Shown piece after piece: positions 54,054 to 54,466 of a DNA stretch of 64,000 nt. Both the position numbers and the translations under genes were made by a program. Under the pieces are notes generated by a model. It saw only the letters and a program-made list of their open reading frames with translations. It did not search any database and had not been told where the DNA came from. The stretch's first letter is position 1. The number at the start of each line of letters is the position of its first letter. The stretch lies in the NCBI RefSeq assembly GCF_044647545.1, contig NZ_CP172818.1; one strand, given 5' to 3'. This DNA is from Escherichia coli (lineage in GTDB: Bacteria > Pseudomonadota > Gammaproteobacteria > Enterobacterales > Enterobacteriaceae).

Positions 54054-54466
54054 TTTAAGTTAATATAAAATAAACCACCCTTTTCTTTAAAAATTTTATT
54101 TTTCTTTTCAAAAAAAAACAATTTAAAAAAAAAAAATATCTCTCTAAAAAAAAAAAAAAAACAAAATAAATTTTTTTTAAAAAAAGAAAAGAAAAAAAAA
54201 AAAAAAATGAAAAAAAAGAAAAAAAAATAAAGAAAAAAAAAAAAAAAAAAAAAAAAAAAAAAAAAAAAAAAAAAAAAAAATATTAAACCACAAAAAACAA
54301 ATAAAAGAAAAAAAAATTAAATAAAAATAAAAAAGAAAAAAAAAAAAAAAAAAAAAAAAAAAAAAAATAAAAAACGAAAAAAAAAAAAAAAAAAAAAAAA
54401 TAAAAAAAAAAAAAAAAAAAAAAAAAAAAAAAAAAAAAAAAAAAAAAACAAAAAAAAAAAAAAAAA
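54054..54466. repeat. 413-bp low-complexity, almost pure poly(dA) tract (probable non-native insertion or artefact)
   Basis: Starts directly after the rluB TAA with AT-only low-complexity sequence and continues as A runs of up to about 50 nt, interrupted by single C/G/T bases; native-looking sequence resumes at tgcggataatgac (54467). Confidence 0.9.

Follow-up and report, generated by a model that had tools for sequence, protein, structure and literature searches.

Between the convergent genes rluB and cobO (btuR), the stretch of Escherichia coli DNA analysed here (64,000 nt, called the window) has an A-rich tract of 413 nt on the plus strand (54054-54466, coordinates read from the sequence). 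Does this tract belong to the chromosome of a living strain, and if it does not, what kind of process wrote it? A first-pass annotation placed the tract at these positions, where the sequence confirms it, and took it for a clean insertion that was most likely an artefact. In what follows, the composition of the tract is described, the interval between the two genes is compared with its natural alleles, the remainder of the window is examined for further anomalies, and the possible origins of the tract are weighed.

Composition and uniqueness of the tract

The tract consists of 328 A, 57 T, 19 C and 9 G (79%, 14%, 4.6% and 2.2%, respectively). The figure of about 90% A in the first-pass annotation holds for the subregion 54200-54466 (91%) but not for the tract as a whole. 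Its first 57 nt (54054-54110) are 49% T, 35% A, 14% C and 2% G and hold a recognisable remnant of native sequence, so the description of a preceding stretch of about 55 bp as AT-only does not stand. G+C content is 5-9% in 200-nt windows over the tract and 45-59% in the flanks. Eleven A-runs of at least 9 nt are present (from left to right 9, 12, 16, 16, 9, 48, 9, 32, 24, 47 and 17 nt). The longest homopolymer in the remaining 63.5 kb of the window is 8 nt, in agreement with the earlier remark that nothing comparable occurs there, and natural E. coli loci amounting to about 200 kb likewise reach no more than 8 nt. Therefore, the A-runs of the tract are far beyond chance.

The tract also has a direction. 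Entropy per 35-nt bin falls from left to right (1.64, 1.33, 1.06 and so on to 0.00 bits) in a monotonic trend, reaches zero at 54404-54438 and then rises abruptly to 1.92 bits. Tandem Repeats Finder (TRF) reports a period-1 array at 54179-54466. The ORFs overlapping the tract are solely poly-Phe translations of minus-strand poly(T), including the one already listed in the first-pass annotation (54283-54519, minus strand, 78 aa, TTG start). A structured RNA or a terminator role of the tract edges is ruled out, since Rfam gives no match at E<=1 in 53000-55500 and no terminator-like site is found in 53900-54700. Note that the tract has no target-site duplication and no terminal repeats in its flanks, the direct and inverted repeats found being low-complexity self-matches only. 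These marks of a genuine insertion (of the IS, MITE or A-tailed retroelement type) are absent.

The annotation named the identical tract in independent isolates as evidence that would speak against an artefact. Among 5,426 complete E. coli genomes, not one covers the right junction. The 38-mer spanning this junction (ATGGAATATCCGGCATTATATTTACAGCATTAATAATC) is absent, in an exact scan, from the GTDB representative genomes and from metagenome contigs; the latter also lack a 51-nt stretch of the interior. Thus no recurring body of an insertion element was found by junction (the 5,426 genomes, GTDB and metagenomes) or by interior (metagenome contigs). An exact look-up among about 15 billion public proteins finds none of the poly-Phe ORFs.

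Long homopolymers are found in other deposited genomes. Collapses of this kind lie at 5060-5700 of L041 (JADJSA010000001.1), 2690-3440 of L030 (JADJJU010000014.1) and 1950-2250 of L034 (JADKGF010000002.1). In Streptomyces sp. NBC_00320 (L021, NZ_JAPEND010000010.1, 5480-5670), an A-run of about 160 nt is followed by a T-run inside a high-G+C contig. One long-read MAG among the GTDB representatives has more than 640 nt of pure A at an internal position. The homopolymers of L021, L041, L030 and L034 look like unflagged assembly artefacts in GTDB representatives.

Natural alleles and anatomy of the rluB-cobO interval

Each flank of the tract, when searched alone, matches several genomes of the ST648 lineage at 100% identity (among them ST648, IMT16316, ECONIH1, MS6198 and FDAARGOS_497). 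The identity of about 97% to E. coli obtained in the first search is a ranking effect, which disappears when the flanks are searched separately. In the ST648 lineage, the rluB-cobO interval is 1,566 bp long and has two annotated hypothetical genes, which encode WP_022645615.1 (340 aa) and WP_001000715.1 (102 aa). This native island (L002 1453-3018, equal to NZ_CP008697.1 2222452-2224017) is absent from the window. It has 36% G+C, two co-oriented ORFs and predicted terminators at both ends: the hairpin AAAGGCCCTACGGGGCCTTT after rluB, with the left hairpin predicted at L002 1472-1491, and GCACCTCAA...TTGAGGTGC after cobO. Both terminators are gone from the window. The 340-aa protein has a lipoprotein-like signal at its N-terminus (MIRYSGIFLSLLMLSGC, with the motif LSGC), and neither of the two proteins matched a family in Pfam, NCBIfam or PADLOC.

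Most E. coli are island-free and have a K-12-like spacer of 39 bp (TCAAAGTATGCCGGACGTCATATCCGGCATTTTTACAGA). The spacer of about 40 bp expected by the first-pass annotation is that of these genomes, not that of the window's own lineage (1,566 bp). The full-length island exists in 812 of the 5,426 complete genomes, ST131 among them, and about 420 further genomes match its first 385 bp only (megablast). N32 (L130), the one genome examined of those 420 or so, has a 75%-identical version of the two-gene cassette in 1,541 bp. The rluB-cobO locus is therefore a hotspot of natural polymorphism, at which three or more alleles exist. The A-tract is in none of the three natural alleles seen.

In the window, the interval is 455 bp compared with the native 1,566 bp, a net loss of 1,111 bp. 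Because the flanks are 100% identical to ST648-lineage genomes with the 1,566-bp spacer, the tract replaces the native island, and both of its edges are corrupted or chimeric copies of natural alleles. The earlier reading as a clean 413-bp insertion does not agree with this anatomy: the flanks match genomes with the long spacer, the edges are damaged and target-site duplication is lacking. A clean insertion into a K-12-type spacer is ruled out as well, since the closest genomes have 1,566 bp and the 39-bp spacer itself is not preserved.

Upstream of the interval, rluB (53178-54053, plus strand) is intact and native. It ends with TAA, is 100% identical to its counterpart in the ST648-lineage genomes and is annotated as rluB in the collinear genomes. 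Immediately after it, at 54054-54092 (plus strand, about 39 nt), lies a degraded copy of the start (the first 50 nt or so) of the ST648-type island. This copy reads TTTAAGTTAA, drops one G and continues with TATAAAATAAA; blastn-short matches it to the island in 21 of 22 nt. In the alignment, the terminator stem GGCCCTACGGGGCC is reduced to CCACCC, followed by TTTTCTT. The native terminator AAAGGCCCTACGGGGCCTTTTCTTC appears in the window as AAACCACCCTTTTCTTT, in which all seven G bases are missing.

The interior (54093-54464, plus strand, about 370 nt) changes from mixed A/T to almost pure A, its entropy dropping from 1.33 to 0 bits from left to right, and shows neither coding nor RNA nor repeat-unit structure. 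It shows no in-register relation to the island, with which non-trivial words are shared only at the edges. Over about 1,900 offsets, the best one matches 21 of 48 non-A bases (mean fraction 0.25, sd 0.06). That the interior copies the island in register, with bases masked or decimated (e.g., N written as A), is ruled out, since no offset rises above chance in non-A matches.

At the right edge, two natural alleles meet. An exact 26-mer of the island (AATGCGGATAATGACATGGAATATCC) occupies 54465-54490 (plus strand). It comes from the interior of ORF2 (L002 2885-2910), its native site being about 107 nt before the right end of the island, and it matches the ST648-type spacer only (26/26, E=3e-10). 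It overlaps, at a common ATATCC, a stretch that resembles the island-free allele (54485-54508, plus strand). This stretch consists of ATATCCGGCATT, an extra AT, ATTTACAG, an extra C and a final A. As read it is ATATCCGGCATTATATTTACAGCA, with three extra bases compared to the natural ATATCCGGCATTTTTACAGA of the island-free allele, and it has an exact 12-mer match to L001. When the right edge is searched against the 5,426 genomes, the best matches are island-free genomes, aligned from query position 24 at 95.3% identity. An origin of the right edge in the third natural allele is ruled out, since the allele of N32 is a 75%-identical island without the 26-mer. Identity to ST648-lineage genomes resumes at the stop codon of cobO, which is native (54509-55099, minus strand), and continues over 54509-64000 (9,492 nt) with no mismatch and no gap. 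The first-pass annotation had native-looking sequence resume 42 nt before this stop codon. Normal complexity does return there, but those 42 nt are not native.

Therefore, the interval is neither of the two alleles that its edges recall. With a spacer of 455 bp, it matches the ST648-type island in just 21 of 22 nt at the left and in the 26-mer at the right, and the search of 53900-54700 finds no native terminator. Of the island-free allele, only ATATCCGGCATT is exact; the remainder has three inserted bases and the left half is missing.

Differences in the rest of the window

The backbone of the window (1-21962, 22915-54074 and 54509-64000) is 99.98-100% identical to FDAARGOS_497, ST648 and strain 4973. 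In local alignments, 40863-54074 (to ST648) and 22915-54074 (to FDAARGOS_497) are identical except for the deletions described below, and the window is collinear with FDAARGOS_497 apart from an insZ segment, these small deletions and the tract. Private substitutions in the backbone number zero. Two SNPs relative to FDAARGOS_497 would not be common to other close genomes, as deduced from bit-score arithmetic and 100% matches.

The tdk-adhE spacer (21963-22914) is an insZ-type remnant of the IS4 family as found in other E. coli lineages (99.2% identity, three indels, a substitution cluster at 22096-22116). At this site, both ST648-lineage genomes examined, FDAARGOS_497 and 4973, have an intact IS4 whose inverted-repeat ends and CCCCAGAAGGG duplication are identical to those of the window. 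The combination of ST648-type flanks with this insZ allele exists in none of the 5,426 genomes, among which the best full-length identity is 97.9%. The segment is not a second synthetic tract: it is a natural insZ remnant and is unnatural only in its combination with ST648 flanks.

Four private deletions are found in the backbone, at 7716 (T), 14947 (TA), 15065 (G) and 27019 (AGTG). A fifth one (G at 54064) lies at the edge of the tract. The deletions at 7716, 14947 and 15065 are located 2-4 nt past 3' ends (those of narK and of both tRNA-Tyr genes). The deletion at 27019 frameshifts a 98-aa hypothetical ORF; the frameshifted protein is absent from the public collection, and the intact form is encoded on at least 1,000 contigs. 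Wherever one of these sites was located in a natural genome, the undeleted state was found. In the distant RM9513, three of the four sites could be located and all three are undeleted, which leaves a scaffold of another lineage (reference-guided consensus) unsupported as the source of the small deletions. The unconstrained 13% of the backbone takes in all four events; were errors spread uniformly, this would have P about 3e-4 (about 8e-3 with the hypothetical ORF at 27019 treated as a gene).

Further differences exist among these genomes. In the region of the tRNA-Tyr genes (window about 14940-15170), the window and the ST648 lineage have two genes (tyrT-tyrV) separated by only 34 nt and lack RtT sRNA repeats; K-12-like RM9513 has four annotated RtT repeats in its tyrT-tyrV region (L129 14809-15721). 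Strains ST648 and 4973 have a lambdoid prophage of about 40 kb beside ompW (L004 1-8262 and L007, corresponding to window position 40860 or so), which is absent from the window and from FDAARGOS_497. The gene yciE is annotated as a frameshifted pseudogene in the ST648 lineage.

Origin and meaning of the tract

Natural divergence cannot combine zero substitutions in about 62 kb with a scrambled 1.5 kb, an allele chimera and an IS-bounded swap. Because of this, we hold with high confidence that the tract arose as an artefact, in whatever way, when the sequence was produced and exists in no cell, and we class it as almost certainly not a real feature. The uniqueness of the tract and its chimeric edges thus support the preference of the first-pass annotation for an artefact (of assembly, sequencing or synthesis) or a spike-in. 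The annotation also foresaw a slippage hotspot, DNA curvature and poly(U) read-through tails. They presuppose that the DNA is physically there, for which there is no support.

The opposite view is that a living ST648-lineage strain really has the tract in its chromosome. A double-strand break would have cost this strain the island, and runaway slippage synthesis or captured poly-dA of the DRT9 type would have closed the gap. We consider this very improbable, even though the locus is a natural hotspot with at least three alleles. Uninterrupted runs of 47-48 A are expected to be highly unstable in replication, the longest natural homopolymer in about 260 kb is 8 nt, and the right junction is in none of the 5,426 genomes; neither a target-site duplication nor an inserted body is present. 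Break and fill would also leave unexplained the island-free bases at the right, the damaged left terminator, the insZ swap and the deletions without substitutions. DRT9 is, to our knowledge, the sole bacterial process that makes long poly(dA). According to the part of the report cited here, DRT9 reverse transcriptases accumulate long poly-dA in E. coli during phage infection, which in principle offers a source of poly(dA), but the synthesis is protein-primed, the products are protein-DNA adducts, and this part of the report contains no account of chromosomal integration (PMC12483538). A DRT9 locus comprises a reverse transcriptase and an ncRNA; the annotation of the collinear 64 kb in FDAARGOS_497 lists no reverse transcriptase, and 53000-55500 has no Rfam match. 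If the tract were real, an enterobacterium would here have a chromosomal poly(dA) tract of such length (about 370 nt) for the first time. Another kind of bacterial homopolymer is the phase-variable tract (contingency locus), which is usually shorter than about 20 nt, lies in a promoter or in the 5' part of a gene and varies in length among strains. The tract in the window is like these loci in being a homopolymer that would be prone to slipped-strand mispairing (PMC2831843). Unlike them, it is 413 nt long, lies between two convergent 3' ends (the stop codons of rluB and cobO) and is in no other genome searched; no orthologous tract is found, with the junction in 0 of 5,426 genomes and three natural alleles without it.

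Among the ways of producing an artefact, a failure of read-based assembly or consensus is the chief competitor of the source favoured below and has to be taken seriously, though we give it limited credence. Long reads from an ST648-lineage isolate or a mixed sample would have covered the island poorly or aberrantly. With the same reserve, it may be supposed that consensus or polishing emitted a shortened A-rich collapse and that residual deletions survived in AT-rich or repeated DNA. The island has just 36% G+C, all of the small private differences are deletions, two of them in the duplicated tRNA-Tyr region, and deletion-only errors in such DNA fit incompletely polished long-read assemblies. 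Similar tracts also exist in deposited assemblies (L034, L020, L030 and L041). GTDB representatives include at least 120 contigs with an uninterrupted A-run of 48 nt or more. Nearly all of these are from drafts or MAGs, and most of the runs sit at contig ends; several are internal in long-read 'tig' contigs. In L034, for example, AT-only low complexity gives way to long A-runs with single bases between them, as in the tract, and L020 and L030 have much the same texture. The collapses in L034, L030, L041 and L021 resemble the tract in their A-runs of at least 48 nt, in their isolated-base interruptions, in a sometimes AT-only lead-in and in occurring almost only in drafts. They differ from it in being mostly pure homopolymers at contig ends or in contigs of k-mer length, and none is shown with two-allele edges (replacement of native sequence was judged for the window tract only). 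Moreover, reads from one strain cannot yield the island-free-allele bases at 54491-54508 or the insZ of another lineage, so that a second strain is needed; RM9513, a second lineage in which three of the deletion sites are locatable, does not have the window's allele state at any of them. Random read errors should mostly hit coding DNA, regardless of constraint, but all four deletions lie in the unconstrained 13% (P as given above), and none of them is in a long homopolymer. A deliberate manual edit or spike-in, in which the island was cut from a real ST648-lineage sequence and an artificial A-rich filler was pasted in as a control or decoy, seems improbable to us. A hand-made filler would not start as a gradually degrading native copy or end as a chimera of two alleles, and the insZ allele swap and the four small deletions would be left unexplained. 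What speaks for such an edit is that the non-native stretch runs exactly from the stop codon of rluB to that of cobO, that the window otherwise reads, in essence, as an unaltered real genome and that the tract-specific sequences were not found in the collections searched.

The source to which we incline, by somewhat more than even chances, is a likelihood-driven sequence predictor, such as a genome language model used for generation or infilling, or an imputation step that amounts to the same. We infer this mechanism from the anatomy of the tract alone. Such a predictor would reproduce the ST648-lineage chromosome near-perfectly where the sequence is constrained and would fail on a lineage-specific, AT-rich and unannotated island. 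Read from left to right after the stop codon of rluB, the copy tracks the native island for about 20 nt and then loses the G+C-rich terminator stem. From there it drifts into A/T low complexity and further into near-pure poly(A), while its entropy drops from 1.64 to 0 bits. It re-anchors through the 26-mer of ORF2, switches at ATATCC into an error-bearing copy of the commoner island-free allele and is exact again from the stop codon of cobO. The same process may have written the species-common insZ remnant where both examined ST648-lineage genomes have IS4, and may have dropped 1-4 nt at four low-information sites (intergenic or in a hypothetical ORF) without any backbone substitution. Lineage-specific accessory DNA would thus revert to the commoner allele, as seen for insZ and for the island-free-like bases. 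A single mechanism would in this way account for all of the anomalies of the window. The mix of two mutually exclusive alleles at the right edge can be produced by a model trained on both, and not by single-strain reads.

Collapse of generated sequence into low complexity with homopolymer runs is documented for Evo 2 (bioRxiv 10.64898/2026.01.17.700093). In the tract, complexity is lost progressively in one direction and the loss ends in homopolymer. The private differences of the window are all outside conserved genes, with commoner alleles replacing lineage-specific sequence. The one-directional decay of entropy and the restriction of errors to unconstrained DNA match the collapse of a generative model. 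The published collapse is likewise a progressive homopolymer degeneration along the direction of generation, with output elsewhere that is locally plausible, and genome language models have particular trouble with repetitive or low-information DNA, which fits the placement of errors here (bioRxiv 10.64898/2026.01.17.700093). A difference is that the published model collapses over at least 5-10 kb after 300-400 kb of decoding, whereas the tract is local (about 370 nt) and has lineage-exact flanks (same source). This is also the weak point of a predictor as the source: once collapsed, a purely autoregressive generator is not normally expected to find its way back to lineage-exact sequence. The window does come back to 100% lineage-exact sequence, for which a predictor would have to fill in between fixed flanks, be conditioned on the true sequence or have its output spliced.

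The tract itself has no biological significance, as there is no evidence of this DNA in a cell. The only biologically interesting item at the locus, maybe mildly so, is the hidden native two-gene cassette, which is absent from the window. For quality control the finding matters more directly: the window carries at least three kinds of silent corruption, namely the collapsed island, the insZ/IS4 allele swap and the small intergenic deletions. The source of the window probably contains silent non-natural edits as well. Other odd findings from this window or its source should therefore be checked first against real genomes of the ST648 lineage.
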